42,250 nucleotides of DNA, from contig CAZOQG010000003.1 in the NCBI GenBank assembly GCA_964582065.1, positions 1 to 42,250 on the forward strand. Reading direction: 5' to 3'. The stretch comes from an uncultured Dehalococcoidales bacterium. Its GTDB lineage: Bacteria; Chloroflexota; Dehalococcoidia; GIF9; UBA5629. Position 1 is the first letter of the stretch. Every line of letters begins with the position of its first letter. Under the pieces are notes generated by a model that saw only the letters and a list, made by a program, of their open reading frames with translations, was not told where the DNA came from and searched no databases. Positions 12,926-35,590 of the stretch are shown piece after piece. The position numbers and the translations under genes are program-made.

Positions 12926-13807
12926 ATGCAAAATGTAGAAGAGTTATTTTCCCCACCACGGAACTTTGGTGCACTGCCATCCCCCTACACCGGCCTGGAA
13001 ACCGCCAAAGTAGTGATTCTGCCGGTGCCCTATGATAGCACTACCGAATGGCACAGTGGCACCCGTGAAGGACCGCAAGCTATTATCGGCGCTTCACAAT
13101 ATCTCGAGCTATATGACATAGAGCTTGATCAGGAGATCTACAAGCTGGGAATTCATACTGTATATGAAATCCAGCCCTTGTTGAGTGGCCCCGAGGAGAT
13201 GGTACAGCGAGCTTACCATGTAGCCAAGCAGCTCATACAACAGGCGAAATTCGTGGTAATACTGGGGGGAGAACACTCTCTGAGTCTTGGAATGGTTCGG
13301 GCTCTTAAGGGAAGGTATCAGGATTTCTGCGTGTTGCAACTGGATGCTCATGCCGACCTTCGCGATGAATATACGGGCACCAAATACAGTCATGCTTGCG
13401 TGATGCGTCGCGTACTTGAGCTCTGTCCCATTATTCAAGTTGGAATGCGAAGCCTGAGCCGTGAGGAGCAACAGTTCTTGAACCAAAACAAGATGCGGCC
13501 ATTCTACATTTCGACACCGACCCCAGATTTGGCTTGGCCACAGCAGATAGTAGCCTTACTGCATGACAACGTTTATGTATCTATTGATTTAGACGTCTTC
13601 GATCATTCAATTATGCCGGCAGTAGACACTGCTGAACCAGGTGGTATGCAGTGGCACGAAGCTCTCAATTTAGTGAGGTTAGTAACTCTGCGCAAACACG
13701 TCATTGGCTTTGACCTTGTGGAACTGTGTCCCAGGGAAGGCCCTACTTCCTGCGCTTTCCTGGCGGCCAAACTAGCCTATAAGCTTATCGGTTACGCTAT
13801 GTCATAA
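12926..13807 (+). CDS. speB: Agmatinase
   Basis: GTREGP, GGEHS, DAHADLRD, SIDLDVFD, EPGG, DLVEL. Confidence 0.9.
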   Translation: MQNVEELFSPPRNFGALPSPYTGLETAKVVILPVPYDSTTEWHSGTREGPQAIIGASQYLELYDIELDQEIYKLGIHTVYEIQPLLSGPEEMVQRAYHVAKQLIQQAKFVVILGGEHSLSLGMVRALKGRYQDFCVLQLDAHADLRDEYTGTKYSHACVMRRVLELCPIIQVGMRSLSREEQQFLNQNKMRPFYISTPTPDLAWPQQIVALLHDNVYVSIDLDVFDHSIMPAVDTAEPGGMQWHEALNLVRLVTLRKHVIGFDLVELCPREGPTSCAFLAAKLAYKLIGYAMS

Positions 13808-13816
13808 GAAACGGAA

Positions 13817-14935
13817 ATGAAGAGCAGTTTGCATCTAGGCAAGATTTTTGGCATTCCTCTGCGTCTGCATTATACCTGGTTCTTCATCTTTGTCTTGATG
13901 ACAGCCTCGTTGGTAGCCTATCTACCAACGTCAGAGCCTTACATTCTCTGGCAGCGGATAGTTCTTGGAGTAACTGCTAGCCTTCTCCTCTTTGTTTCCA
14001 TAATCGCCCACGAGCTAGCTCACAGCCTCGTCGCCGTCAAGAATGGTATTCCCGTAAAAGGCATTACCCTTTTTGTCTTCGGCGGTGTATCGCAGATAGC
14101 CAAAGAGGCAAGCCGCCCGAATACTGAAATGCTGATTGCTATAGTTGGTCCATTAGCTAGCGTAGCAATAGCCGGCATCTTTCTCGGAGCTTCCTTTTTG
14201 TTGAGTGAGCCTCTGGCTACTGTAGCCCAATGGCTAGCTTTTGTTAATGGATTGATGGCCATATTCAATCTTATCCCCGGTTTCCCTTTGGACGGTGGCA
14301 GAGTTTTGCGGTCCATCGTCTGGTTGAGAACCGGCAATTACATGCGGGGAACACGGATCGCCACTTCGTCGGGTCGAGTCATCGGCTACGTGTTTGTCGT
14401 GGGCGGTATCACATTCATGTTTATCACCGGTGAGTGGATTGGCGGCTTGTGGCTAGCTTTCATAGGCTGGTTCTTGGAAACCGCAGCCACGATTAGCTAC
14501 CGACAGGCGTCATTCCATGATGCCCTTCGTGGTTCCACAGTGCAAGACATAATGATTGAAGACCGTTACTTGCTCCTTGCAGTTGCACCACGTGAACTTA
14601 GTCTGGAGCGTTTGGCCCAAGATTACATCCTGCGCACTGGACGTCGGTCCTTTATGGTAGCTGCAGACGGCAATTTGGAGGGAATTATTACTTTGCACGA
14701 TGTAAAAAAGGTCTCACGAGACCGTTGGAGTGCTACCTCGGTGGGAGACATAATGATCCCGCGCGCTAAATTGAGAACGGCCCATCCCGACCAGGATGCT
14801 TTAGCCCTGCTCGAGGAGATGGATGAAGGGAACGTAAACGAAGTCCCTGTGATAAAGGGAGACAAGATTATCGGCATGGTAACCCGAGACAACTTGAACC
14901 ATCGCCTACGAATTCGGACTGAGCTGAAGATGTAG
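13817..14935 (+). CDS. M50 site-2 zinc metalloprotease with C-terminal CBS pair
   Basis: HELAH, FGGV, NLIPGFPLDGG, transmembrane helices and CBS motifs. Confidence 0.92.
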   Translation: MKSSLHLGKIFGIPLRLHYTWFFIFVLMTASLVAYLPTSEPYILWQRIVLGVTASLLLFVSIIAHELAHSLVAVKNGIPVKGITLFVFGGVSQIAKEASRPNTEMLIAIVGPLASVAIAGIFLGASFLLSEPLATVAQWLAFVNGLMAIFNLIPGFPLDGGRVLRSIVWLRTGNYMRGTRIATSSGRVIGYVFVVGGITFMFITGEWIGGLWLAFIGWFLETAATISYRQASFHDALRGSTVQDIMIEDRYLLLAVAPRELSLERLAQDYILRTGRRSFMVAADGNLEGIITLHDVKKVSRDRWSATSVGDIMIPRAKLRTAHPDQDALALLEEMDEGNVNEVPVIKGDKIIGMVTRDNLNHRLRIRTELKM

Positions 14936-14941
14936 AAATGT

Positions 14942-14971
14942 TTGACACCGAATGCCTTCCTGTTCTATCAT
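14942..14971 (+). promoter_or_regulatory. Putative greA promoter
   Basis: TTGACA-N18-TATCAT, favouring the ATG at 14994. Confidence 0.55.
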
Positions 14972-14993
14972 TAACCCAATTCAAAGCAGAAGA

Positions 14994-15821
14994 ATGAGCC
15001 CACGAAACACGCCTGATTCAGCCCCAGCTAGTTCCAGCCTAGCAGAGATCGCCACTCAGTTTGTTCTGAGACTCCCTTCAGAGGATAGACCAAGGGCCCA
15101 GCAAGAAGTATACAAATTTGTACGTTGGTACGGCGAAGACCGCCAGCTAAGTGGACTCACCATTCCTGAAGTGGCCAATTATGCCGAGCAAGTCACTTCG
15201 ACAACTACCGAGGCAGCAGAGAAGTTAGGGATAATCAAAACGTTTCTTGCCTATGGTTACAAGCAAGGCCTGACAAGAACAAATTTGGCTGCCCATATCA
15301 AGGTTAAGAAGACTTCACCCAAACCCGCCTCTCCGTCCAAACGACGGTCCAAAGGATCGGTTTTGCTGACTACTGAAGGCTATGCCGATTTAGAAGCTCA
15401 GCTTGCTCTCCTCAGAGACGAGCGACCCCGGATAGCTGAGGATCTCCGGAAGGCGGCAGCCGACAAGGATTTCCGCGAAAATGCTCCCCTGGATGCCGCC
15501 CGGGAATATCAAGGCCAGTTGGAGGCACGAATTAGAGAGCTGGAATCAACCCTGAAAATGGCAACACTAATGGATGAACAGCAGCCAGGTGGTGACGACG
15601 TAGATATAGGTGATACGGTAGTACTCCGAGACTTAGTCTCTGGCGAAGAATTATGCTACACGCTCCTTGATGCTAGTGAAGCCAACCCAATCGAAGGCAA
15701 ACTCTCTGTCACATCGCCGGTGGGTCAAGCATTATTGGGCCGGCAGAAAGGGAACAAAGTCGAGGTTAGAGCGCCAGGTGGCATCGCACATTACCAGATT
15801 GAAGACATCAAGCACCGTTAA
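14994..15821 (+). CDS. greA: Transcription elongation factor GreA with ~120-aa N-terminal extension
   Basis: LTTEGY..LEAQL, DFRENAPLDAARE, RIRELE, SVTSPVGQALLG, APGG. Confidence 0.9.
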   Translation: MSPRNTPDSAPASSSLAEIATQFVLRLPSEDRPRAQQEVYKFVRWYGEDRQLSGLTIPEVANYAEQVTSTTTEAAEKLGIIKTFLAYGYKQGLTRTNLAAHIKVKKTSPKPASPSKRRSKGSVLLTTEGYADLEAQLALLRDERPRIAEDLRKAAADKDFRENAPLDAAREYQGQLEARIRELESTLKMATLMDEQQPGGDDVDIGDTVVLRDLVSGEELCYTLLDASEANPIEGKLSVTSPVGQALLGRQKGNKVEVRAPGGIAHYQIEDIKHR

Positions 15822-15959: not shown

Positions 15960-16176
15960 AACCAAGCCGCAAGAAAAGGGTTAGCCTGCGAGAGCTTTCC
16001 CCAATGAATTGGCCAAACTTGAAGCCCCGAATTCCGTATGAGAATCTACAGGCAACTTGAGGGAGGGCCGCGGCGAAGGCAGATAGAGGCCCCTGGGCTG
16101 GCACCTAAACCTTACCCCGGTGGCTGTCCAGCGGGCATCGCTGTGATAGGAGTTGAGACGTTTAAAGGAGGTACAT

Positions 16177-17361
16177 ATGGATTTCAAGTTTACAGATGAA
16201 CAAATGGCACGCAGAAAGGAGTTTGTTGAGGTCTGCAAGGACCTGGAGAAACGAAAGCCGCCAGAGTACATAGGATTCGAGAGTGCGTATTCCGATGAGA
16301 CATGTTGGGAGTACGACCGCCATTGCGCCAAGGAATTTGCCAAGAGGGGATGGCTCGCCCTCGATTGGCCTCCCGAATATGGAGGCTCAGGAACCATGAT
16401 GGACCGAGTTCTCTTTTCCGAAGCGAGAGGATACCATGGCGTTGCCGGGCTTGATGTCTTCGGAGTAGGAATGCTTGGGCCCACACTTCTTGCGGCAGCA
16501 AGTGATGAGATAAAGAGGGAATTCCTTCCCCCTATCGCCGCAGCGGAGGTGACATGGTGCGAGCTATGGAGCGAGCCTAATGCAGGGTCTGACCTGGCAT
16601 CCCTCACCTGCACTGCGATAAAGAAGGGCGATGAATACATCTTGAACGGCCAAAAGACCTGGACCACCGGTGCTCACAAGGCTGATTGGGGTTTTGGAGT
16701 ATTCAAGAGCGACCCCGAGGCCCGGAGCCACCATAATCTTTCGTTTCTGCTGCTGGACATGAAGACCCCTGGAATTACAGTACGACCCCTCCCGTACATG
16801 AACGGAGAAACAATCTATAACGAGGTTTACTTCGACGACGTGCGCATCCCTGCCAAGAACATCGTGGGGCAAGAAAACGAAGGCTGGGCGGTTGTTAACA
16901 CCCTCGCCGGCTTCGAGAGATCCAACATAGACCAGATTATGTCGATGGCACGGGGGCTGGAAGGCCTGGTGCAGTATTGTAACGAGACCAGGCGAAGCGG
17001 CCAGCTTTTGGCGAAGGACCCGCTCATCCGCAACCGGCTGGCGCAGACGGCTTGCGATATTGAGGCAGCCCGAACACTAGCCTACCGAGTGGCTGATTTG
17101 CAAAACAGGAACGAAATGTCTCTGATGGATGCTTCGGCGTTGAAGGTATTTGCCAGTGACCTCGGAGAGCGCCTTGCTTTTTTGGCAACGGACATTTTGG
17201 GCCCTTACGGCCAGGTCAAGTCTTCTCGCTGGGCGCCTATGAATGGCACGTGGGAGGCTTTGTATCACGACTGCTTCGTATTCACCATCTCCATGGGGAC
17301 AAACGAGATACAGAAGAACATCATTGCTTGGTACGGTCTGGGCTTGCCCCGGATGAAATAG
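16177..17361 (+). CDS. Acyl-CoA dehydrogenase (catalytic-type subunit)
   Basis: WPPEYGG, WSEPNAGSDL, NGQKTWTT, FER, GTNEIQKNII; AAGGAGG RBS. Confidence 0.93.
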   Translation: MDFKFTDEQMARRKEFVEVCKDLEKRKPPEYIGFESAYSDETCWEYDRHCAKEFAKRGWLALDWPPEYGGSGTMMDRVLFSEARGYHGVAGLDVFGVGMLGPTLLAAASDEIKREFLPPIAAAEVTWCELWSEPNAGSDLASLTCTAIKKGDEYILNGQKTWTTGAHKADWGFGVFKSDPEARSHHNLSFLLLDMKTPGITVRPLPYMNGETIYNEVYFDDVRIPAKNIVGQENEGWAVVNTLAGFERSNIDQIMSMARGLEGLVQYCNETRRSGQLLAKDPLIRNRLAQTACDIEAARTLAYRVADLQNRNEMSLMDASALKVFASDLGERLAFLATDILGPYGQVKSSRWAPMNGTWEALYHDCFVFTISMGTNEIQKNIIAWYGLGLPRMK

Positions 17362-17384
17362 GCTCAGTTTCAACAGGAGGAATC

Positions 17385-18518
17385 ATGGATCTAACATTCA
17401 GTGAAGCACAAGAGATACTAAGAAAGATGGCACGGGATTTCCTTTCCACGGAATGTCCCAAGACCTTGGTGAGGGAGCTCCAGGGCAGCGAGAAAGGATA
17501 CTCTCCCGAACTCTGGAAGAAGATGGCGGAGCTGGGATGGCTCGGGCTAATTGTTCCCGAGGAATATGAGGGCATGGGTTATACCTTCCAGGACCTGACC
17601 GTTCTCCTGGAGGAGACAGGCAGGAACATTCTCCCCGGACCATTAGTCCCCACTATAACAAGTACTTTCCCCATACTGGACGTGGGCTCTGAAGAACAAA
17701 AGAAAGAGCTTCTGCCAAAGATAGTTGCTGGAGAGCTAATTCTCACTACAGCCCTGCTTGAAGCCGAGGGCACGCTTGACCCGTCTGGAATTGCCGTCAA
17801 AGCGACGCCTAAAGGCGATGATTTCGTAATCAATGGCACGAAGCTTTTTGTGGAAATGGCTCATGTTGCCGACTACCTCATCTGTGCCGCTAGGACGAAA
17901 GACGGAACCTCACCCGAGGAGGGAATCACCCTGTTCATAGTTGACGCCAAGGCTACAGGAATCGCCTGCGAGGTAATGCCTACCATAGCCCTGGACAAGC
18001 TGTGTGAAGTACGGTTCAAGGATGTCCTGGTGCCTAAAAAAAACGTGTTGGGTGAGCTAGATAAAGGGTGGCCCGTTATACAGAAGATGCTTGAGAAAGG
18101 AGCTATTGCCAAATGCGCCGAGTCCATCGGCGGTATGCAAACCGCTGTTGAGATGACCGTGGTATATTCCAAGGAGAGAGTCCAGTACGGCAGGCCTATT
18201 GGAGCTTTCCAGGCAGTCCAGCATATGATAGCTGACATGTGGTCCTCGATGGAGACCAGTCGCTATCTGGTCTACGAGGCAGCATGGATGCAATCCGAGG
18301 GGTTCCCCTGTGCCAAGGAGGTCTCCATGGCAAAGGCATATGTCAACGAAGCCTATAAGTACGTGACCAAGTGGGCGATAAGGCTGCACGGCGGCATCGG
18401 CACCAGCAACGACCACGATATACCCCTTTATTACCAAAAGGCCAAGGCTGCAGATACTGCTTTTGGGGGCACCGACTTCCACAGGGAGCTAGTTGCGCAA
18501 CAAATTGGCCTCCTTTAG
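17385..18518 (+). CDS. Acyl-CoA dehydrogenase (partner-type subunit)
   Basis: LWKKMAELGW, LLEETGR, NGTKLFV, RVQYGRPIGAFQAVQH, HGGIG; AGGAGG RBS. Confidence 0.92.
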   Translation: MDLTFSEAQEILRKMARDFLSTECPKTLVRELQGSEKGYSPELWKKMAELGWLGLIVPEEYEGMGYTFQDLTVLLEETGRNILPGPLVPTITSTFPILDVGSEEQKKELLPKIVAGELILTTALLEAEGTLDPSGIAVKATPKGDDFVINGTKLFVEMAHVADYLICAARTKDGTSPEEGITLFIVDAKATGIACEVMPTIALDKLCEVRFKDVLVPKKNVLGELDKGWPVIQKMLEKGAIAKCAESIGGMQTAVEMTVVYSKERVQYGRPIGAFQAVQHMIADMWSSMETSRYLVYEAAWMQSEGFPCAKEVSMAKAYVNEAYKYVTKWAIRLHGGIGTSNDHDIPLYYQKAKAADTAFGGTDFHRELVAQQIGLL

Positions 18519-18552
18519 CGCTCTAGGGTCGTTTAGCAATTGAGAGTTGCCT

Positions 18553-18588
18553 AGCCCCTCTTTCCCGGAGGGGCTGAGTTCTTGTTTT
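18553..18588 (+). terminator. Putative intrinsic terminator
   Basis: AGCCCCTC-N7-GAGGGGCT followed by a T-rich tract. Confidence 0.6.
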
Positions 18589-18697
18589 CCCTCTGCCTTC
18601 AAGCACTGCTCATCTTGTCTAGTCTAGATACTCATCGCACCGTTCCCGGCCTCGCCTCCAGGGCTGACAAACCATCAGCATCTCCGTTACCTCTCCT

Positions 18698-18726
18698 TTG
18701 AACCCGCGGTTGCTATTTGCTACACT
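18698..18726 (+). promoter_or_regulatory. Putative promoter for second ACAD pair
   Basis: TTGAAC-N17-TACACT with TG extension. Confidence 0.5.
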
Positions 18727-18879
18727 AATACGGCATCCTTAGCATAAGGCCACATTGTAATTGAAGCCCAATTTAACCCCGTTGCAATAGGCAAATGATA
18801 ACGCCAACGTAAGAGCGATGGCTTAAAAGGATTTGACGCCGTCTCAAAGGACTCAGATATAACAATAAGGAGGCACAAT

Positions 18880-20079
18880 ATGGATTTTGGATTCACCCCA
18901 GAAGAAGAGAAGCTTAGACGCGAGGTTCGTGATTTTCTCCAGAAGGAGGTCACACCTGAAGTCATCGCCGAAGTGGCAGAGTACTGCGGAGGAGCTGGGC
19001 CAGTATTCGGCCGCAAGTTCATTCAGAAGATGGGAGCGCAGAGCTGGCTTTGTCCTACATGGCCAAAGGAATACGGCGGCCTAGATAGTACGGAAATGGT
19101 AGGCTTCATGATGCGTGATGAAATGACATACGCTGGAGCGCCGGTGTCCCTCATTGGCGCAAGTATGGCAGGCCCGACCATTTTGAGATGTGGCAGCGAC
19201 GAGATGAAGAAGGAGTTCTTGCCTCGCATCGCCAGAGGTGAAATAGAGATGGCCCTGGGCTACACAGAGCCTCAAGCAGGGTCTGACCTGGCAGCACTCG
19301 AGATCCGGGCCGAGGATAAGTCAGAGGTGGAGGCTGATGACAAGGGAGATTACTTCCTTCTGAACGGGCAGAAGATGTTCAATACCCATGCCCACTTTGC
19401 CGATTACCACTGGCTGGGAGCCAGGACTGAGACTGACCCGGCGGTTCGTAGGCACAGGGGAATCTCATTGATGGTCGTAGACCTGAAGAGTCCAGGCATC
19501 ACCATACGGAACATGTTAACCATAGCCGGCTGGAAAACAAATGAGGTGTTCTACGACAACGTGAAGGTCCCCAAGAAGAACCTGGTAGGGGAGATAAACC
19601 GCGGATTCTATTACATAATGACTGCTCTTGACTTCGAGAGGATGTTCCCTATCGGCGGGTTTCAGCGTCTATTTGATGAACTGGTGAAGTACACCAAGGA
19701 GACAAAACGCGACGGAAAACCCTTGAGCCAAGACCCAGTCATCCGGCAAAAGTTGGCCCAGACGGCAATCGAGCTGGAAGCAGCAAGTCTGCTCTATTAT
19801 CAGCTAGCCTATATACTAGACAAGGGTGAGGTACCCAATTACCAATCGTCTATGCAGAAGGTGTTCGCCACTGAGACAGCCCATCGCCTGGCTGATGTTG
19901 CTATGCAAATAATGGGGCCTCGCGGACAACTGCAGACGGGCTCCAAATGGGCCCCGCTTAATGGCGAAGCAGAACTCCACTATCGCTGGGGATTTATTGA
20001 GACTGTCTATGCCGGCACGTCCGAAATCATGAGAAACATTATCGCTCTCAGAGGACTAGGACTACCTTTGACGGGTTGA
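18880..20079 (+). CDS. Acyl-CoA dehydrogenase (catalytic-type, FadE26/FadE29-like)
   Basis: WPKEYGG, LGYTEPQAGSDL, NGQKMF, ALDFER, AGTSEIMRNII. Confidence 0.93.
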   Translation: MDFGFTPEEEKLRREVRDFLQKEVTPEVIAEVAEYCGGAGPVFGRKFIQKMGAQSWLCPTWPKEYGGLDSTEMVGFMMRDEMTYAGAPVSLIGASMAGPTILRCGSDEMKKEFLPRIARGEIEMALGYTEPQAGSDLAALEIRAEDKSEVEADDKGDYFLLNGQKMFNTHAHFADYHWLGARTETDPAVRRHRGISLMVVDLKSPGITIRNMLTIAGWKTNEVFYDNVKVPKKNLVGEINRGFYYIMTALDFERMFPIGGFQRLFDELVKYTKETKRDGKPLSQDPVIRQKLAQTAIELEAASLLYYQLAYILDKGEVPNYQSSMQKVFATETAHRLADVAMQIMGPRGQLQTGSKWAPLNGEAELHYRWGFIETVYAGTSEIMRNIIALRGLGLPLTG

Positions 20080-20132
20080 TCCAAGTTTCAAAATCTCGGC
20101 AAGGTGCGATTCAAAAAGGAGGAACAACCATT

Positions 20133-21248
20133 ATGGACTACGACCTTAGCGAACAACAAGAGATGCTCAAGAAAACATCTCACGACTTCCTCGCCACGGA
20201 ATGTCCCAAAAGCCTGGTAAGGCAGATGGTGAGCGACGAGAAGGGATATCCTCCGGAACTGTGGCACAGAATGGCAGAGCTGGGTTGGATGGGATTGCCA
20301 TTCCCCGAAGAGTATGGCGGCACTGGAGGGAGCTTCCTTGACCTGGCTGTTCTCCTTGAAGAAATGGGGCGTGTCTGCTTGCCGGCTCCGTTTTTATCTA
20401 CCGTGGTTCTAGCAGGTATGACCATCCTCGAGGCGGGCAACGAGACTCAGAAACAGGAGTTGCTGCCCAAGATTGCTGAAGGGAAATTGATTGTTGCTTT
20501 AGCCCTGACCGAACCTGGCGGAGGATACAGTGCTGATAAGGTAACTGTGGAGGCAGTCGCCGATGGAAATAACTATGTCATCAGCGGCACGAAGCTTTTT
20601 GTTCCCGATGCCCATGTTGCTGACTACATTATCTGTGTCGCAAAAACAACGGGCGGGGTCACCCTGTTCTTAATAGATAGTAAGACTTCGGGTATTAGTT
20701 ACACCATACTCAAGACCATTGTTGGTGACAAGCAATTCGAGGTAGTATTCGATAAGGTAAAAGTGCCCAAGGAAAACATCCTTGGAAAGGAAGGGCAGGG
20801 ACACATTCAACTGCAAGAGGTGTTACGTAAAGCGGCAGTGGCCAAGTGTGCTGAGATGGTCGGCGGTGCCCAGCAAGTCCTAGAAATGACCGTGGATTAT
20901 GTTAAAGACCGCAAGCAGTTTGGAGTCCCCGTAGGTACGTTTCAAGCTGTTCAACATCACTGCGCTAATATGGTTACTGACATCGATACATCAAGGTTTG
21001 TTACCTACCAGGCAGCATGGAAGATAAGCCAGGGGCTTCCTTATGCTAAAGACGCAGCCATGGCGAAAGCCTGGGTAAGCGATGCCTACAGGCGGGTTAC
21101 TAAACTGGGCCACCAAAGCATGGGAGGGGTGAGTCTAATGGAAGATCACGATATGCCCCTATATTCGAAACGTGCTAAGTCAGCCGAACTCACCTTCGGT
21201 GATGCTGATTTCCATCGAGAGGCATTAGCTCAGGCGTTAGGGCTGTAG
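20133..21248 (+). CDS. Acyl-CoA dehydrogenase (partner-type subunit)
   Basis: LWHRMAELGW, LLEEMGR, SGTKLFV, RKQFGVPVGTFQAVQH; AAGGAGG RBS. Confidence 0.92.
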   Translation: MDYDLSEQQEMLKKTSHDFLATECPKSLVRQMVSDEKGYPPELWHRMAELGWMGLPFPEEYGGTGGSFLDLAVLLEEMGRVCLPAPFLSTVVLAGMTILEAGNETQKQELLPKIAEGKLIVALALTEPGGGYSADKVTVEAVADGNNYVISGTKLFVPDAHVADYIICVAKTTGGVTLFLIDSKTSGISYTILKTIVGDKQFEVVFDKVKVPKENILGKEGQGHIQLQEVLRKAAVAKCAEMVGGAQQVLEMTVDYVKDRKQFGVPVGTFQAVQHHCANMVTDIDTSRFVTYQAAWKISQGLPYAKDAAMAKAWVSDAYRRVTKLGHQSMGGVSLMEDHDMPLYSKRAKSAELTFGDADFHREALAQALGL

Positions 21249-27357: not shown

Positions 27358-28412
27358 TAGTTCGTCGCTCATCTAAGCCTATCAGAGTTGGCACAATAAC
27401 CGTGGGGGGTGATGCTCCCATTGTAATTCAGTCTATGACCAAAACCGATACCAGGAACGTACCAGCTACCGTAGCTCAGATTAAGGAGCTCGCTGATTGC
27501 GGTTGTGAGATAGTCAGAGTAGCCGTGCCCGATGCGCAAGCTGCGCAGGCTATTTCAACCATTAAGCAAAATACTTCCATTCCCATCATTGCCGACATTC
27601 ATTTCGATTATCGGCTTGCCCTGGCGGCAATGGCAGCCGGCGCTGATGGGCTTCGCCTGAACCCTGGGAATATTCGTGACCCAGAGCAAATTGCCAAAGT
27701 AGTCCAGGCGGCTAAGGAAAGGCAGACACCCATTCGTATCGGCATCAACGCTGGAAGCCTACCACCCGCCTCAAGACAACACTCATCTATACCTGAGCAC
27801 ATGGTCAGCGCAGCGCTGGAGCAAATCAACCTACTGGAAAGCCTGGATTTTGATTTGATTAAGGTTTCCCTTAAAGCCTTCGACGTGCTTACCACAATCG
27901 AGGCCTACAGAACAATATCCCCAAGAATATCCTACCCTTTGCATCTAGGTATAACCGAGGCAGGTCTTCCTCGAGCAGGTGCTGTTCGCAGCGCAGTCGG
28001 CATTGGTATACTTCTTCACGAGGGTATCGGCGACACTATCCGTGTCTCCCTTAGCGCCCATCCTTGCGAGGAGGTAAATGCCGCTCATGAGATTCTAAGA
28101 AGCCTCGACCTCCGCCAACACGGCCCTACCTTGATAAGTTGCCCTGGCTGCGGTCGGGCTGAGGTGGATATCATTGGTTTGGCTGAGTCCGTAGACAGAA
28201 GGCTAAGCGAGATAAGTAAACCCATCAAGGTTGCCGTCATGGGCTGTGTTGTCAACGGTCCAGGTGAGGCAAAAGACGCCGATGTCGGCATTGCCTGCGG
28301 CAAAGGCAAAGGTGCCATCTTCAGAAAAGGCAAAGCGGTAAGCACTGTAGACGAGACACGATTCCTGCAAGCCTTAATGGCGGAGGTGGAAAATCTTTGC
28401 GCACTAGACTGA
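27354..28412 (+). CDS. ispG: HMBPP synthase
   Basis: QSMT, ADIHF, RLNPGN, HLGITEAG, GDTIRVSL, CPGCGR, MGCVVNGPGE. Confidence 0.97.
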   Translation: MIVRRSSKPIRVGTITVGGDAPIVIQSMTKTDTRNVPATVAQIKELADCGCEIVRVAVPDAQAAQAISTIKQNTSIPIIADIHFDYRLALAAMAAGADGLRLNPGNIRDPEQIAKVVQAAKERQTPIRIGINAGSLPPASRQHSSIPEHMVSAALEQINLLESLDFDLIKVSLKAFDVLTTIEAYRTISPRISYPLHLGITEAGLPRAGAVRSAVGIGILLHEGIGDTIRVSLSAHPCEEVNAAHEILRSLDLRQHGPTLISCPGCGRAEVDIIGLAESVDRRLSEISKPIKVAVMGCVVNGPGEAKDADVGIACGKGKGAIFRKGKAVSTVDETRFLQALMAEVENLCALD

Positions 28413-28551
28413 GTTACTTCGACATGATTTGATGTTGCAGGGTTCTCAGACTAATTCGCCCGCTCATAGGGGAGAAAGCGGGTAGCGACGCAAGCTATGG
28501 TTTTTCAGAATCGAGGAGTCTCAAGGAGGCCAGATTGATAAGGAGAACAAA

Positions 28552-28833
28552 ATGGAATATCCGATAACCATCGGTTTCCGTCATCAAGAAGGACTCTCAC
28601 GGCTGACTACTTTTTTCAGACTGCCTATGGTTGTGCCCCACTGGATTGTCCTGTGGGGTATCGGCATAGCCGTCAGCGTTGTCAGGTTTATTGCCTGGTG
28701 GGCTATTTTGTTCACTGGCAAATATCCTGAATGGGCTTTCAATTTCGTCGCCGGTTACGTTCGCTGGTACACTAGAGTAATGGCTTATTACTGTCTGCTA
28801 ACTGACAGATACCCGCCCTTCAGCATAGAATAG
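28552..28833 (+). CDS. DUF4389-like small membrane protein
   Basis: AILFTGKYP...GYVRW..RV.AY..LLTDRYPPF; AAGGAG RBS. Confidence 0.8.
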   Translation: MEYPITIGFRHQEGLSRLTTFFRLPMVVPHWIVLWGIGIAVSVVRFIAWWAILFTGKYPEWAFNFVAGYVRWYTRVMAYYCLLTDRYPPFSIE

Positions 28834-28892
28834 TCATCTGGCAACAGCCTTCTCAACAGCGAATTGAGAATTCTATTTAGAGGCCAACGAAT

Positions 28893-30602
28893 ATGCGCCT
28901 TTCAAGGCTTTTTGGCAAGACATTAAAAGAGACACCGGCAGAAGCTGACACCCTGAGTCATCAACTGTTGCTTAGGGCCGGAATGATTCAGCAGGTAGCC
29001 GCCGGTATCTATTCCTATCTACCTCTAGGCTGGCGAGTGCTCAGGAAAATTGAGCACATAATCCGGGAGGAAATGGACAAAGCTGGTGGGCAAGAGCTAA
29101 TGCTACCTGCGCTTCAGCCCTTTGAACTTTGGGAACAATCAGGTAGATACCCTTCCTTCGGCAAGACTCTTTTCACCGTTATTGACCGCAAGGAACACAG
29201 GTTAGCCTTGGGCCCCACCCACGAAGAGGTTATCACCGAGCTTGTCCGCCGCTATGTGCAGAGCTACCGCGACCTGCCCCTTCTCCTTTACCAGATACAG
29301 AACAAGTTCCGCGATGAACCCCGTCCCCGAGGCGGCCTATTACGTGTCCGCGAGTTCATTATGAAAGACCTTTACAGTTTTGATGTTGATGAGGCAGGCT
29401 TAGACAACAGCTACCAAGAAATGATTCAAGCCTACAAGAACATCTATTCTCGCTGCGGCTTACCGGCAGTGGTTGTAGAAGCTGACAGCGGCGCCATAGG
29501 CGGCAAAGAGTCTCAGGAGTTTATGCTAATCGCTGATAGTGGTGAAGATGAAATTATGTATTGCTCCAGTTGCGGTTATGCTGCCAACACAGAAAAAGCC
29601 CAATTCGCCAAGCCAAAGCTGGAAATCAAATCTCCTTTGCCCATGGAAGAGATATCAACCCCAAACATCAAAACAATCGAGGAAGTGGCCGATTTTGTCG
29701 GTGTGCCCACAAGCCATACCCTGAAGGCGGTCTTTTATTCAGCCGATGGCGAGCTTGTTTTTGTGGTCACTAGAGGAGACCTGGAGGTTAACGAGACAAA
29801 ATTCAGAAACTTGCTAAAATGCTCGGAGTTGCGTCTGGCCACAGAAACCGAAGTGAAGGCAGCCGGGTTAGTGGCCGGCTCAGCCTCACCGATAGGCATA
29901 GAGGGAATCAAGATTGTAGCCGACGACTCGATAACCTTGGGTTCCAATTTCATTGCCGGAGCCAACAAGGTGGACACTCACCTCAAGAATGTGAACTACC
30001 CCCGCGATTTCGAGGTTGACACTATTGCCGACATCGCTGTAGCACGTTCAGGTGATAGCTGCCCTAAATGCGAAGGCAAACTCCTTTCCACGCAGGGCAT
30101 TGAGGTTGGTCATGTCTTCAAGCTAGGCACCTTCCTCAGTGAGAAGCTAGGTGCTTTTTTCCTCGACCGAAATGGCGTATTATGCCCAATCATTATGGGC
30201 TGCTACGGCATTGGACTGGGAAGACTATTGGCAGCCGCAATAGAACAGAATCACGATGACAAAGGTATTATCTGGCCGCTAGCTATCGCCCCCTACCACA
30301 TCCACTTATGCCCTCTCCACCTAGGAGATTCTGAGATTTCCCAAACAGCTGAAAAACTATACGAGGACCTAACCAGGAAAAACTTGGAGACGCTTTTCGA
30401 TGACCGCGACGAATCCCCAGGATTTAAATTCAATGACGCCGATCTTCTGGGAATACCTCTCCGTTTAACTTTGAGCCCACGCACCTTGCAGAGTCAGAGT
30501 GTAGAGGTAAAATGGCGCAAGGAGAAGCAAGCTCAACTTCTACCCCTGGAAGGAATAACTGTCAGAATAAAGGAATTGCTACAAGAACCTGACCGAAGCT
30601 AG
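28893..30602 (+). CDS. proS: Proline--tRNA ligase (with editing domain)
   Basis: SHQLLLRAG, LGPTHEE, KFRDEPRPR, IEVGHVFKLG, MGCYGIG. Confidence 0.98.
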   Translation: MRLSRLFGKTLKETPAEADTLSHQLLLRAGMIQQVAAGIYSYLPLGWRVLRKIEHIIREEMDKAGGQELMLPALQPFELWEQSGRYPSFGKTLFTVIDRKEHRLALGPTHEEVITELVRRYVQSYRDLPLLLYQIQNKFRDEPRPRGGLLRVREFIMKDLYSFDVDEAGLDNSYQEMIQAYKNIYSRCGLPAVVVEADSGAIGGKESQEFMLIADSGEDEIMYCSSCGYAANTEKAQFAKPKLEIKSPLPMEEISTPNIKTIEEVADFVGVPTSHTLKAVFYSADGELVFVVTRGDLEVNETKFRNLLKCSELRLATETEVKAAGLVAGSASPIGIEGIKIVADDSITLGSNFIAGANKVDTHLKNVNYPRDFEVDTIADIAVARSGDSCPKCEGKLLSTQGIEVGHVFKLGTFLSEKLGAFFLDRNGVLCPIIMGCYGIGLGRLLAAAIEQNHDDKGIIWPLAIAPYHIHLCPLHLGDSEISQTAEKLYEDLTRKNLETLFDDRDESPGFKFNDADLLGIPLRLTLSPRTLQSQSVEVKWRKEKQAQLLPLEGITVRIKELLQEPDRS

Positions 30603-30787
30603 GGCCAGACTAGCTTGACACACTCCTCAGCCCAAGCAGCGGCAAGCACAGGCACAATACAGCCAAACCTTTCGCTTTTCACCTCCTCTAGTGAAGTCCG
30701 CAAGCTTGCCGCGTCTCGTTTTTGTGATGAAAGCACAATACGACCTGTAACTTTGTGCGACTATGGGCCTCAGAAGATACAATCTCA

Positions 30788-30824
30788 TGACTAAAGTACT
30801 AGTCAAACCGTGACCAATTGGTCA
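30788..30824. promoter_or_regulatory. Two adjacent TGAC...GTCA inverted repeats (candidate operators)
   Basis: TGACTA-AAGTAC-TAGTCA (30788-30805) and the perfect palindrome TGACCAATTGGTCA (30811-30824). Confidence 0.55.
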
Positions 30825-30901
30825 TTCCATAAATGTCATTCTGGACTATACTATATGCTATAAACTCTCTCCAAAAGGGGGGTCAATATGGGAGAAGGAA
30901 G

Positions 30902-31516
30902 ATGTTTGACAAATTCATGAGAGCCCTCAGAAGGGGGCATCGAAATGAGAAGGGCATCACCGGCCTGGAGACGGCGATTATCCTGATTGCTTTTGTCACC
31001 GTAGCTGCAGTGTTTGGCTATGCCGTGCTCTCCGCTGGTATCTTCTCGGCTGAGAAGGGTAAAGAGACTGTCTATCTCGGCCTCCAGGAAGCCAAGAGCA
31101 CCATGGAGCTCACGGGAAGCGTTGTCGCTTTCGGCGAGAACGCGACAGATACGGTAAGCTCGATTAAATTCACCGTGCGCAATGCTCTAGGTGGAGAGGC
31201 CATAGACCTGACGATACCGCCCAACAACAAATCCATCCTCACCTACATTGATTCTCAACAGTATCACAACGACGCGAAGTTTGCTTTAACATGGGTAGGC
31301 ATGAGCGACAACGATAGCCTGCTGGAGGTAGGTGAGAAGGCGCAGATCACATTTGACTGCACCGACATTGACATAGCTACGGCAAGCACGCCCCTCCTCC
31401 CAACCCTGGGATGTTACACGAAGTTTACCCTCGAGTTCAAGCCACCTGCCGGGTCCGTAGTTACAGTCGAAAGGATCACGCCTGGCGACATGGATCCGGT
31501 CATGAATCTACACTAA
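30902..31516 (+). CDS. Archaellin (archaeal-type flagellin, ArlB/FlaB family)
   Basis: Class III signal peptide ...RNEKG/ITGLETAIILIAFVTVAAVFG; DNDSLLEVGE motif; likely ATG 30902 after a purine-rich RBS. Confidence 0.9.
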   Translation: MFDKFMRALRRGHRNEKGITGLETAIILIAFVTVAAVFGYAVLSAGIFSAEKGKETVYLGLQEAKSTMELTGSVVAFGENATDTVSSIKFTVRNALGGEAIDLTIPPNNKSILTYIDSQQYHNDAKFALTWVGMSDNDSLLEVGEKAQITFDCTDIDIATASTPLLPTLGCYTKFTLEFKPPAGSVVTVERITPGDMDPVMNLH

Positions 31517-31715
31517 TGCTACCGGCAGCCCGGCTTTTGTTCGTAGACTAGTCGTTAGGTAGCCGCTCATTGTTGCCAGAGGGTCAGTAGGCTGATTAAA
31601 GAACAAAGTGACCGAACACGCCCACTCAGGGCAAACTCCGTGAACGCACAGGGGCAGTGACCGATTCTTTAGCGAGATTACCCTGGGTTGGACAACCAAA
31701 TGTAGCCAGCCCTCG

Positions 31716-33119
31716 CTAAGCAGCCCTTTCTTGTATCATTTTATACTTGTAGACAACAGACAGTGCTCTGATAGCTCTTGTCACCGACGGGTATACAGGT
31801 ACACCGTTCAACTCCAACTCTTCGACTACTGCATGCAGTGAATCGGTCATCGCATGCGGCCACACAACAACCGGTTTGCCTTTTTCTTTTCCCAACAAGA
31901 AAGGCCTGAGAGCCTTGTCTGTGCCAAGCGAAGGGAAAAACGGCGGCAACCCGACTATCAGGCAATCCACGTTCTCATCGCCGACCATAGACTCCAAGAA
32001 GACGCTGTAGACCTCATCGGTCGGGTGAAACTGAGTGCAAACCCCTATGTCAAAGGGATTCAACGGAATCTCCCAGGGGGGAAAGAAAGGCTTGAGCTTG
32101 CCAAAGGTTCGCCCGTTCGGCCTTGCCATTGAGAAACCGTTTTGCTCGCATGTATCCGTAGCTATTACGCCTTCCCCCCCAGCCAAACTGGCGACGACTA
32201 TCCTGTTGCCACTTGGTGGAGTCAAAAGCCCGAAGGCTTTGGCAAAATCAAAGAAATCATCCAGCGTCTGCGCCCCAACGACCCGTGACTGTCTCAATAC
32301 AGCGTCAAACACAACATTGCTCTCTTTCGCCATAGAACCTGTGTGTGAAGCAGCAGCCTTAGCCCCGGCAGTGCTTCGTCCAGACTTAAGAACCACAATC
32401 GGCTTGGCCTTCGAAGTATTGTCGAGGAGTTGCATGAACTTCTTGCCGCCGCCCTTCAGCGTTTCCAGGTGCATAGCTATAACTTTCGTATCCAGGTCCT
32501 GGGCCAGGTACTCCAAAGCATCAACCTCGTTTATGTCCATCTTGTTACCCAGATCAATAAGCTTACTAATACCAAGGTGAAAATCTGAAAGAATCCAGTT
32601 GAGTTTGGGGTCATATAGACCAGATTGAAAAACGAAGGATACGCCTCCCCGGGTTAGTCTTTCAACCGGCAAAAAACTAACTACAAGATTGTTCGCAGTG
32701 TTGATCGGGCTGAGGGCATTCGGTCCAATCGCCCTAATCCCAGCTTGCTTCAAGAGATGAGCAATTTCATCCTGCACCCTGCGCCCTCGCTCATTGGCCT
32801 CCGAGAAACCTCCGGCTACAAGCACAACCCCTTTGACCCTTTTCTCGGCACATTGCTTAACGATGTCCAGGGTCATGTGGGCAGGGACAGCAGAAACGAC
32901 CAGGTCTATCTCGCTGTCGATATCTTTCAATCTAGCGTAAGCTTTTGTCCCAAGAATCTCATCAGCGTTGGGGTTCACTGGATAGATTTCGCCCCTGAAC
33001 CCCAGTTTGACTAGATTCCTAACCAGGTTATAGTTGAGAGTTAGTGGACTTCTGGAAGCCCCCACTATGGCCACACTGCTGGGATAAAAGAATGAATCCA
33101 GGAAATGCCGTTTTGCCAT
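31716..33119 (-). CDS. CoA-binding protein, NDP-forming acyl-CoA synthetase alpha-subunit-like
   Basis: VAIVGAS, YPVNP, GGFSE, IGPN, QSG, GNKMD, phospho-His motif SHTGS; no ATP-grasp domain. Confidence 0.88.
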   Translation of the reverse strand: MAKRHFLDSFFYPSSVAIVGASRSPLTLNYNLVRNLVKLGFRGEIYPVNPNADEILGTKAYARLKDIDSEIDLVVSAVPAHMTLDIVKQCAEKRVKGVVLVAGGFSEANERGRRVQDEIAHLLKQAGIRAIGPNALSPINTANNLVVSFLPVERLTRGGVSFVFQSGLYDPKLNWILSDFHLGISKLIDLGNKMDINEVDALEYLAQDLDTKVIAMHLETLKGGGKKFMQLLDNTSKAKPIVVLKSGRSTAGAKAAASHTGSMAKESNVVFDAVLRQSRVVGAQTLDDFFDFAKAFGLLTPPSGNRIVVASLAGGEGVIATDTCEQNGFSMARPNGRTFGKLKPFFPPWEIPLNPFDIGVCTQFHPTDEVYSVFLESMVGDENVDCLIVGLPPFFPSLGTDKALRPFLLGKEKGKPVVVWPHAMTDSLHAVVEELELNGVPVYPSVTRAIRALSVVYKYKMIQERAA

Positions 33120-33184
33120 GAGTATGCCAGCTCTATCTGACTATTTTGTCTTTTTGGGAGCTTTCCAGCAACACCTGAGATACG

Positions 33185-35590
33185 TTAAGCTCGCAAACTA
33201 GCTCCTAGCTCCCGCGCTAACTTATCGAGAATCTGCTGCTGGACCTTGTCGACTTCTTCATCAGTCAAGGTATGCGTGGATGACTGATAGATGACCCTGA
33301 AAGCGAAGGACTTCTTGCCCACCGGCACTTGCTCTCCGCTGTAAAGGTCGAAAAGAGACACCTGATCCACCAAAGAAAAGCCCTTGACAATATCATAAAC
33401 CTGTTCATGGGTTATCGCTTCATCCACTAATAGCGCAATATCTCTACTCGTACTCGGATATCGGGAAATTGGCTGATACTTCTTAGGGCCACCTATAGAA
33501 GATTCCAGTTTATCTAGATCAATTTCGATGAGATAGGCAGGCCCAGAGAGTTCAAAAGCTTCCGATACCTTGGGATGTAGTTCGCCTATAACGCCCACCT
33601 TGTCATTGCCAACAGTTATGTCAGCGCTTCTCCCAGGTATTAAGCCTTCATCCTCACCTGCCTCAAAGCTCGCAGCCAATTCCAGCCGAGACAAAAATGT
33701 CTCGACCACCCCCTTGGCAATAAAGAAGTCAACAGGCTCGACTTCACCCCGCCAGGATAACCCACCCTGAGAGCTACTGAGCACAGCGCAGACCATCTCT
33801 TTTTCTTGCGGCAAATCTTTCTCCTGCGGCAAGAACACCTTTCCAATCTCGAAAAGTCTGATGCCATTCTCCTGGTATTTCTGATTGCGAGCCAGAACTG
33901 ACAGGAGACCGGTTCGCAAACTGGTGCGAAGATACTCGTGGTCCCTGCTCATAGGATTAGCTACCTTTACCGGGACTGCGCCCTTCAGCCGAAGCTCAGG
34001 TGATAGCCTGCTCATCACCTCGAGACTGGTCAGCGAATAGGTAAGCACCTCCTGGAAACCACAGCTAACCAGGATGCTCCGTAGCTTTCGTCTAAGAGCC
34101 AGCATTGGCATTGACTCATGCTCTGGCAGAGGCGCACCAAGCATAGTAGTCGGAATATTGTCATAACCAATAATACGAACCACCTCTTCCACTAAGTCAG
34201 CGGTGCAACTGATATCAGTACGCCACCACGGAACGTTGACCCGAACTGATGAGGGCAACTCAGTTTGTTCACAACCGAAACCCAAGAGCTCCAACGTCCT
34301 TACTATTTCACTAATCCCCACCTCCATACCAAGAAGCCGCTTAACCTCAGCAGCGGACAACAATATAGGTTCGACCTGCCGCTTGCCGGGGTAAACATCA
34401 ATCACCCCCTTAGCCACCTTGCCGCCAGTCAATTCCAGCATCAATTCAGTCGCCCTCTTGAGTGCCACCACTGGCAAGTCTCGACTGAGCCCTTTCTCAA
34501 AACGCAGCGAGGCTTCACTGCTCAGTCGGAGGTTCACGCTCCCCCGATGAATAGCTGCTTGATTGAAATTTGCCGATTCTATCAGAACACTGGTAGTATT
34601 GGCTGTTACCTCAGTATCCAAACCTCCCATAATGCCGGCAATGGCAATCGCCCATTCCTTGTCGGCAATGACCAGCATGTCCTGGCCGAGAGTCCGCTCG
34701 ACTCCATCCAAAGCAGTCATAGTCTCGCCTTTCTCTGCCCGGCGTACTATGATCTGCTTTCCGTGGATTCTGTCGTAATCGAAGGCATGGAGGGGCTGCC
34801 CATATTCCAGCATCACATAGTTGGTAATATCGACAATATTACTGATAGGCCGCATGCCACAAGCCAACAAACGCTGTTGTAGCCACTGAGGTGATGAACC
34901 TACCTTGACCCCAGTAAGCAAGCTGGCACAGTATCTAGGACATAGGTCTGGGTCAGCAATTTCCACCGAGACAAAGGAGTCTATTGCGTTCTCCAATTCT
35001 TCGTAGTGGATTTCAGGAATACTGAGCCTACTCCCGGTAACAGCTACTATTTCCCGGGCAACACCAATCACCGACAAGCAATCAGGACGGTTCGGTGTTA
35101 TGTCCAGGTCTAGGATTGTATCCCCAAGATGTTCAGACAAAGGAGTACCAACAGGCGCCTCCGGGGGAAGAATCATAATCCCCTTGTGACTGTCAGAGAT
35201 TCCCAGCTCCTTTTCAGAGCAAACCATGCCTTCAGAAACAACGCCACGAATCCTGGCTGGCGTTAGCTGAATAACCTCGCCACTATGACCGTCGATGAGC
35301 TGAGCCCCCACATGGGCAAAAGCCACATTATCCCCAATTGTGAGATTCGGGGCACCACAGACAACAGTAGATTGCCGCTTCCCCAACTCAACGGTCACTA
35401 GCCTCAAGCGGTCGGCATTTGGATGGGTATCAACACCAACGATTTTGCCAACTACGATATTATTCCAGCCTGCGCCGATAACCTGCATTCCCCCAACTTC
35501 CAATCCAGCCATAGTCAACCTTTCAGTCACCTCTTCGAGTGGTGCAGAAATATCAACATAGTCGCTGAGCCATCTAAAAGAAACTTTCAT
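33185..35590 (-). CDS. pheT: Phenylalanine--tRNA ligase beta subunit
   Basis: HPNADRL, VCGAPN, TPNRPDCLS, GQPLHAFD, RFEKG, C-terminal FDX-ACB domain. Confidence 0.98.
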   Translation of the reverse strand: MKVSFRWLSDYVDISAPLEEVTERLTMAGLEVGGMQVIGAGWNNIVVGKIVGVDTHPNADRLRLVTVELGKRQSTVVCGAPNLTIGDNVAFAHVGAQLIDGHSGEVIQLTPARIRGVVSEGMVCSEKELGISDSHKGIMILPPEAPVGTPLSEHLGDTILDLDITPNRPDCLSVIGVAREIVAVTGSRLSIPEIHYEELENAIDSFVSVEIADPDLCPRYCASLLTGVKVGSSPQWLQQRLLACGMRPISNIVDITNYVMLEYGQPLHAFDYDRIHGKQIIVRRAEKGETMTALDGVERTLGQDMLVIADKEWAIAIAGIMGGLDTEVTANTTSVLIESANFNQAAIHRGSVNLRLSSEASLRFEKGLSRDLPVVALKRATELMLELTGGKVAKGVIDVYPGKRQVEPILLSAAEVKRLLGMEVGISEIVRTLELLGFGCEQTELPSSVRVNVPWWRTDISCTADLVEEVVRIIGYDNIPTTMLGAPLPEHESMPMLALRRKLRSILVSCGFQEVLTYSLTSLEVMSRLSPELRLKGAVPVKVANPMSRDHEYLRTSLRTGLLSVLARNQKYQENGIRLFEIGKVFLPQEKDLPQEKEMVCAVLSSSQGGLSWRGEVEPVDFFIAKGVVETFLSRLELAASFEAGEDEGLIPGRSADITVGNDKVGVIGELHPKVSEAFELSGPAYLIEIDLDKLESSIGGPKKYQPISRYPSTSRDIALLVDEAITHEQVYDIVKGFSLVDQVSLFDLYSGEQVPVGKKSFAFRVIYQSSTHTLTDEEVDKVQQQILDKLARELGASLRA

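Follow-up and report, generated by a model that had tools for sequence, protein, structure and literature searches.

Archaella were shown to be real and functional in bacteria only in 2025, in one cultured species, Litorilinea aerophila, whose bacterial archaellum is represented by the structures 9SIE and 9SII (PMC12488501), and on that point the locus described here adds nothing. According to the accessible text of that paper, the L. aerophila archaellin ArlB is cleaved before Ile29, its metal site consists of D121, D127, E131 and E134, T66 is one of two putative O-glycan sites, and the non-SAR202 Chloroflexota use the prepilin peptidase PilD; bacterial archaella are described as O-glycosylated, and AglB goes unmentioned in that text. 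The archaellum of some Chloroflexota was acquired from Euryarchaeota. In Haloarcula marismortui, flaB lies beside the fla accessory genes and flaA2 on the plasmid pNG100, and the available part of PMC6528647 speaks of 'ecoparalogs'.

The window analyzed here is a stretch of 42,250 nucleotides that makes up the entire contig C3 of a 1.57-Mb bin from an uncultured member of the Dehalococcoidales (genome G000; 108 contigs, with completeness estimated at 84% and contamination at 1.15%). An uninterrupted open reading frame on its forward strand, 30902-31516, encodes 204 amino acids plus a stop codon. This gene, its surroundings and the elements recognized within it are as follows.

28893..30602, plus strand: proS (prolyl-tRNA synthetase), the upstream neighbour, outside the archaellum system (Pfam tRNA-synt_2b, tRNA_edit, HGTP_anticodon)
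30786..30862, plus strand: putative conserved archaellin promoter element (nhmmer profile)
30847..30852, plus strand: putative -10 hexamer TATACT, 50 nt before the start codon (register in homologous copies)
30891..30894, plus strand: Shine-Dalgarno GGAG, 7 nt before the ATG (read from the sequence)
30902..31516, plus strand: arlB paralogue encoding an archaellin precursor of 204 aa (reading frame with Pfam, NCBIfam and PDB matches)
30902..30955, plus strand: class III signal peptide M1-G18, cleaved before I19, with E23 at +5 (alignment to the mature L. aerophila subunit)
30956..31111, plus strand: N-terminal hydrophobic helix and adjoining conserved segment, I19 to about L70, the filament core (paralogue identity and dN/dS)
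31139..31147, plus strand: sequon N80-A-T82, conserved in the family (alignment column counts)
31307..31336, plus strand: putative metal-binding loop D136-N-D138-S-L-L-E142-V-G-E145 (alignment to the solved subunit)
31716..33119, minus strand: ADP-forming acyl-CoA synthetase-like (acs) gene, the convergent downstream neighbour, outside the archaellum system (Pfam CoA_binding_2, Succ_CoA_lig)

Comparison with known families and solved structures confirms that the product of this frame is a genuine archaellin, a subunit of the archaea-type swimming filament. The Pfam family Arch_flagellin (PF01917) matches residues 18-190 over profile positions 1-161 of 162, with an E-value of 8.8e-24 and 85.1 bits against a cut-off of 29.5, which bears out the earlier note's reading of an archaeal-type flagellin in a bacterial region; the score for NCBIfam TIGR02537, the archaellin/type IV pilin N-terminal domain, lies just above its cut-off (21.2 bits versus 20). 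The PDB was compared by sequence and profile searches, the fold being read from the alignment to solved archaellins. All nine matches of the sequence search (E-values up to 1) are named flagellin or archaellin, and the closest, 9i5h/9sie/9sii (E 1.5e-42), pairs query residues I19 to L203 with chain residues 1-182, so the predicted mature protein aligns across the entire globular domain of 9i5h. A search with a profile of 27 homologues, at E-values up to 10, returned thirteen structures, twelve of them archaellum subunits and the thirteenth a 'Pilin_N domain-containing protein' (E 1.7); no bacterial type IV pilin was recognized among these thirteen, and no N_methyl or prepilin family of Pfam or NCBIfam matched the protein at E-values up to 1.

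A longer frame of 227 aa can be read from an ATG at 30833; we took 30902 as the start because the two paralogues described below begin (MFDKF/MFSKF) at the equivalent position and because the putative -10 box lies downstream of 30833. Cleavage was placed after G18 because the solved mature subunit of L. aerophila begins at the residue aligned with I19; together with the TIGR02537 match, this upholds the class III cleavage site and archaellin N-terminus that had been noticed in the letters alone. The motif DNDSLLEVGE, likened at that time to the archaellin metal site, also withstands comparison with the solved subunit: D136, D138, E142 and E145 each have their counterpart in L. aerophila ArlB (D121, D127, E131 and E134, in that order), so all four ligand residues are kept.

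The gene had further been described as a solitary, orphan archaellin, a description that has to be given up, since it is one of three archaellin genes in the 84%-complete genome, the others lying at C16:2207-2827 and C67:6930-7547. These two are closer to each other than to the window copy, which is 71-72% identical to them overall and 60% identical (80 of 132-133 residues) in the globular part. Within the first 70 residues, 64-66 are identical to the two paralogues. After the C67 gene come a 322-aa arlCDE-like gene, arlG (157 aa) and arlF, which the contig end cuts off after 50 codons; this order, arlB-arlCDE-arlG-arlF, is identical to that of the complete operon of a relative (L010), which continues with arlF, arlH, arlI, arlJ and two further genes. 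In our judgement the window archaellin is very probably a functional additional ArlB that serves this distant arl locus by way of PilD and the arl machinery and is co-regulated with its paralogues.

Archaellin genes were found in 11 of 41 related genomes (G000 included), all within the window's own family, where 10 of the 24 other genomes carry them. Around 29 archaellin loci from these 10 relatives we examined stretches of up to 8-10 kb on each side, less at contig ends. Eight loci, one per genome, carry an arl operon, and the remaining 21 show no match to arlCDE, arlG, arlF, arlH, arlI or arlJ in the surrounding stretch, so dispersed archaellin genes are the rule in this family; one relative has seven dispersed loci. 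Four loci of G013 (L067, L069, L070, L071) encode longer paralogues (352-482 aa), extended at the C-terminus well past the typical length of about 200 aa, and one genome carries at least 11 archaellin matches. The position next to proS is itself occupied by an archaellin in G000 and G006 only. Among 12 relatives examined downstream of proS, the gene abuts the acs gene or pheT in five (G007, G002, G015, G005, G010) and other genes in five (G008, G003, G014, G025, G013); in the remaining two (G001, G011) the contig stops inside proS or soon after it. Across the family, the convergent junction of proS with pheT-acs (30603-30785 in the window) varies in gene content.

For a tree of 37 archaellins, one 40-aa fragment was left out and long forms were trimmed to 215 residues; in it the copies tend to group by genome. 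The C16 and C67 copies form the sister group of the window copy (support 87/73, not starred); the proS-adjacent copy of G006 falls elsewhere, on a long branch, so that the two proS-adjacent copies are not joined in the free tree. Joining them is not rejected by the AU test (p 0.203), for which the group was defined with the tree already in view. The gene may have been inserted once in an ancestor and then partially homogenized, or inserted twice separately.

The pattern of substitutions bears on whether this divergent copy is still in use. Compared with its paralogues over the full length, the window copy has a dN/dS of 0.31; the value falls to 0.04-0.06 for the first 70 codons and rises to 0.50-0.52 for the globular part. 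Of the 64-66 identical residues among those first 70, only 41-43 share the same codon, which indicates that the N-terminal identity is kept by selection and not by recent gene conversion. Homologues of the window archaellin with 79-94% identity occur in other samples. A lake-water RNA library contains contigs that lie on the window copy at 30997-31192, with one differing letter, and at 31422-31580, with none, the latter extending 64 nt beyond the stop codon; as the DNA of the paralogues is only about 70-86% identical, these matches are specific to the window copy. They hint at its expression, the contigs carrying neither strand nor level and possibly stemming from DNA. No listed contig of RNA library X17 lies on arlB, and none of library X18 on proS or the acs gene, uncovered parts being uninformative.

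That the gene is a redundant duplicate, lacking a role of its own and in decay, therefore appears improbable. Such a history would agree with its divergence, greater than that of either other copy (71-72% identity overall, 60% in the globular part), and with the dN/dS of 0.50-0.52 in that part, but the frame is intact, the Shine-Dalgarno sequence and promoter element have been retained together with all four metal-site residues, and the core helix is strongly constrained (dN/dS 0.04-0.06). The close homologues in other samples, the archaellin in the same position in a second genus (G006) and the RNA-library contigs specific to this copy likewise speak against decay.

The machinery that would assemble the subunit can be followed from the C67 operon head. 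When the L010 operon proteins were searched against the window genome with tblastn, all those up to the truncated arlF were found on C67; arlH, arlI and arlJ were not found in the 84%-complete assembly by tblastn or family searches, and L010 ArlI matched only PilB, at 27%. A scan of metagenome data with ArlG recovered a contig (L090) with 98.2% identity to C67:7338-9296 over 1,959 nt, reaching as far as the end of C67; from there L090 continues through arlF (FlaF_Ig-like), arlH (a KaiC-type ATPase) and arlI. The last of these extends to the end of L090, and the best solved relative of its product is FlaI 4ii7 (E 1.2e-127). This continuation shows the motor genes to be missing from the assembly through an assembly gap, not through loss; arlJ was not seen for the window species in the genome assembly or on L090, which ends in arlI. 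From the synteny in relatives and the near-identical metagenome contig we infer that the window species has a complete archaellum machinery. The search for arlF, arlG, arlH, arlI and arlJ suggested by the earlier note was therefore answered in part, by arlG and the start of arlF on C67 and by arlF, arlH and arlI on L090, with arlJ left out; and its proposal of a subunit made for a distant archaellum locus agrees with this operon head and its arlF-arlH-arlI continuation in a 98%-identical contig. The same note had held that a standard arl operon elsewhere would lower the novelty of the locus, and the operon head on C67 does so.

For class III processing, a search for arlK or pilD turned up a prepilin peptidase of bacterial type on C29, a PilD of 264 aa with A24_N_bact and Peptidase_A24 domains, in agreement with what PMC12488501, in its accessible text, states for non-SAR202 Chloroflexota. 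Divergent from the C67 arl operon (C67:1754-6098, minus strand) lie genes for a PilB-like ATPase with an MshEN domain, a stand-alone receiver and a histidine kinase; the same genes stand upstream of the arl operon at L010:5030-9531, at L060:4726-9018 and on L093. This neighbourhood, conserved in G000, G006 and G008 and on a metagenome contig, is a candidate control module. The metagenome arl operon on L093 has two tandem arlI genes (L093:11751-13466 and 13790-15505), 72% and 69% identical to L010 ArlI.

The same genome has a type IVa pilus cluster (PilB/PilC/PilT, on C35), and the other role that the earlier note had allowed for the protein, a filament subunit repurposed on Tad or type IV pilus machinery, has lost its footing. 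We consider it very improbable that the window archaellin is assembled as a borrowed pilin by that type IVa system or by a Tad system. The presence of the cluster would permit it, as would a bacterial-type PilD able to cut both kinds of precursor, a G|I...E site with the glutamate at +5 that also fits bacterial prepilins, and the absence of arlI and arlJ from the assembly. Yet the C35 cluster has pilins of its own, with G|FTLIE or G|MTLIE N-termini; neither a CpaF/TadA-type ATPase nor a second platform protein was found in the assembled 84% of the genome; and the protein has kept its archaellin globular domain complete, metal site included. It matches no bacterial pilin family (E up to 1), and no bacterial pilin was recognized among its solved matches (E up to 10). 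The arl operon head, continued by arlH and arlI in the 98%-identical contig, would offer the additional ArlB an assembly machinery of its own kind.

The immediate neighbours of the archaellin are bacterial housekeeping genes. Upstream lie rpsB, tsf, pyrH, frr, cdsA, dxr, rseP, ispG, a DUF4389 gene and proS, and downstream, on the opposite strand, the acs gene, pheT, pheS, rplT, infC and thrS; a Pfam scan of 34 window ORFs gave no match to an arl gene or a prepilin peptidase, so that the setting first described, between proS and an acyl-CoA synthetase gene with no arl gene or peptidase nearby, is accurate. No tRNA gene was found in 28000-34000, no flanking repeats pointed to a mobile element, and a simple scan found no terminator-like site in 30400-31900. 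The stretch 28800-33200 is tiled by Logan contigs from a lake-water run. An independent run, from marine sediment, has a single contig covering 31045-32097, from arlB into the acs gene, and two overlapping contigs that bridge the end of proS into arlB. In G006, which belongs to another genus of the same family, the series rpsB...ispG-DUF4389-proS-arlB lies on one contig and the arl operon on another. A chimeric contig, which the earlier note had named as fatal to its reading, is made very unlikely by these contigs across the junctions and by the synteny in G006. That chimeric assembly or archaeal contamination placed the gene on C3 can in practice be dismissed: archaellins are typically archaeal and the genome is a metagenome bin of 108 contigs, but GC content across 28000-34000 (0.47-0.53) does not deviate from that of the genome (0.507), independent-run contigs connect arlB with the acs gene on one side and, through overlaps, with proS on the other, the independent genome of another genus has proS-arlB on a single contig, the nearest archaellin homologues all come from Dehalococcoidales or Chloroflexota bins, and estimated contamination is 1.15%.

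Two other regions of the window may be recorded here. A 545-aa IPT/TIG-domain protein encoded at 8083-9720 (plus strand) is 27% identical to the product of a TIG-domain gene, 'ds2', that comes after arlJ in the arl operons of L010, L066, L075, L077, L079, L081, L083 and the metagenome contig L093; proteins of this type may form a conserved, archaellum-associated surface family. At 16153-21248 (plus strand) lie four consecutive acyl-CoA dehydrogenase paralogues.

A conserved element of about 75 nt is found upstream of all three archaellin genes of G000 and both copies of G006. In the window it holds the imperfect inverted repeat GACTAAAGTAC, TGACC and GGTCA sites, a weak -35 box (TTCCAT) and a -10 box, the boxes being a reading of aligned hits; in some copies the inverted repeat is perfect, AGGACT-AA-AGTCCT. 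The weak -35 is separated by a 16-nt spacer from TATACT, which stands in the same register in the C16 and C67 copies and in the operon copy of G006 and is replaced by TATAAT or TACAAT in other relatives. An nhmmer profile built from five archaellin upstream regions recovers the window copy with an E-value of 8.1e-18 and the paralogues with 2.4e-19 and 3.5e-19; a fourth genomic site, C1:3801-3854, has an E-value of 1.2e-5, and no further site falls below 0.01. With an iterated profile, 18 of 38 family archaellin genes prove to be preceded by the element, which in more distant genera is found mainly before dispersed archaellins and not before operon copies. A simple sigma-70 scan of 30400-31900 gave no promoter-like site on the plus strand, so the promoter reading rests on the conserved element, from which we infer that the archaellin genes share an activator-dependent sigma-70 promoter. 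The earlier description of the gene as separately regulated is accordingly half right: it has an upstream region and putative promoter of its own, but shares the conserved element in that promoter with the two other copies.

The distance from the end of the element to the ATG is 48 nt in the window copy, and in C16 and C67 the element lies about 240-250 nt upstream. The latter two genes thus have leaders of about 240 nt (C16:1954-2206, C67:6690-6929), which the window copy lacks. Over about the final 150 nt these leaders are nearly identical, and GGA motifs are frequent in them; when the three archaellin loci, leaders included, were searched against Rfam (E up to 1), only a chance microRNA match came up. 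The element at C1:3801-3854 precedes an ORF at about 3878-4444 (L089:879-1445) for a Cys-rich protein of 188 aa, which has a lipoprotein-like signal (…TWTGC) and no Pfam family above cut-off, and which may be co-regulated with the archaellins.

The globular domain contains the three N-x-S/T sequons that had been read from the translation (N80-A-T, N109-K-S and N137-D-S). By a rough estimate, three in 186 mature residues is within chance, one or two being expected. The N80 sequon stands in the identical column in 22 of 37 family archaellins and at most two columns away in 28 of 37, and its T82 aligns with T66 of L. aerophila ArlB. The oligosaccharyltransferase genes that the earlier note proposed looking for are present, as two STT3-family genes in G000. 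The complete one (C103:475-2775, locus L062) encodes 766 aa with STT3 and AglB_core domains and a WWDYG motif, and the best solved relative of its product is Archaeoglobus fulgidus AglB 3waj (E 6.2e-68); a UDP-glucose/GDP-mannose dehydrogenase gene comes after it. A second archaeal-type AglB gene is located at C45:1-1533 (minus strand; locus L063). Both predicted prerequisites of N-glycosylation, sequons in the surface domain and an AglB-type oligosaccharyltransferase, are therefore encoded in the genome.

STT3 genes occur in 29 of the 41 Dehalococcoidales genomes searched (G000 included), with no association with archaellins across the relatives: 9 of 11 genomes with an archaellin have one and 20 of 30 without. 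Their presence in these 20 archaellin-free genomes indicates that the AglB-type transferase is not dedicated to the archaellum. A literature search for AglB or oligosaccharyltransferases in Chloroflexi, or for N-glycosylation in Dehalococcoidia, retrieved no relevant paper. The transferases and the conserved sequon hint at N-glycosylation of the archaellin, a testable idea rather than a finding. We tentatively extend it to the proposition, doubtful as it stands, that the archaellum of this family is archaeal beyond its motor, with scattered archaellins under one activator-type promoter element and subunits N-glycosylated at N80 by an AglB-type transferase. If this is true, the family would have a small archaellin regulon and N-glycans, as against the putative O-glycans of L. 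aerophila, one of which lies in the very same loop.

The preferred reading, an additional ArlB for the distant arl locus, has direct support in family membership, paralogy, the operon elsewhere, purifying selection and the common upstream element. Beyond these, we extrapolate that PilD processes the precursor, that the arl machinery assembles it, that the copies are co-regulated and that this one acts as a surface variant; these steps would combine as follows. The window copy would be transcribed from its own promoter, the three paralogues probably being switched on together by one regulator, as the same conserved upstream element implies. The precursor would enter the membrane, where the bacterial-type PilD encoded on C29 would cut it after G18, and the ArlH/ArlI/ArlJ motor-assembly complex, encoded by the operon that starts on C67, would add the subunit at the base of the filament. 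The invariant N-terminal helix would then pack into the filament core, with the variable beta-sandwich domain and the metal site facing outward. As to its role, the window copy most likely either stands in for the other subunits or supplements them, giving the filament a different surface.

Comparison with the described systems sets the scale of these observations. The nearest counterpart is L. aerophila ArlB (PDB 9SIE/9SII/9I5H; Sivabalasarma et al. 2025, PMC12488501), to which the window archaellin aligns from end to end (E 1.5e-42); the two proteins share the cleavage context G|IT.LETAIILIAFV and all four metal-site residues and, to the extent of the text available for L. aerophila, both systems have a bacterial host, a bacterial-type PilD and an arl2-type operon with arlG before arlF. 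Roughly half of the residues differ between the two archaellins, L. aerophila ArlB has no sequons at the places aligned with those of the window protein, and the window gene, unlike that of L. aerophila as described there, is one of three dispersed copies and lies away from the arl operon. Bacterial type IV and Tad pilins resemble the window archaellin in their class III signal peptide, cleavage by a prepilin peptidase, hydrophobic helix and glutamate at +5; they differ from it in that it has an archaellin globular domain and no N_methyl or prepilin match (E up to 1). A 2026 preprint on F1 chemosensory coupling contains no mention of arlB, Dehalococcoid, orphan or copies.

In the arrangement of its genes the window genome is closer to Haloarcula marismortui, which also has archaellins at separate loci, one by the motor genes and another far off, and in which, according to the portion of PMC6528647 available, each archaellin can build a filament and the globular domains differ around a common core. 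That organism is an archaeon in which archaellin use is tied to salinity, whereas the window genome is bacterial and its common promoter element suggests co-expression rather than a switch. That several paralogues may enter one filament is likewise seen in the heteropolymeric archaellum of Methanocaldococcus villosus, with two alternating archaellins; as far as the accessible text of PMC8821640 goes, the paralogues there lie in the same operon, whereas those of the window genome are dispersed.

Measured against these systems, the window locus is an ordinary member of the bacterial archaellum system published in 2025. The scattered archaellins, the common promoter element and the combination of AglB with a sequon are modest additions to it, as set against the available text of PMC12488501. 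In this uncultured Dehalococcoidales family the filament gene has been multiplied and scattered into housekeeping regions with a common promoter element kept, which provides a handle on how a transferred archaeal machine is wired into bacterial regulation, and the AglB-type transferases with the conserved sequon raise the testable question of whether some bacterial archaella are N-glycosylated like archaeal ones.
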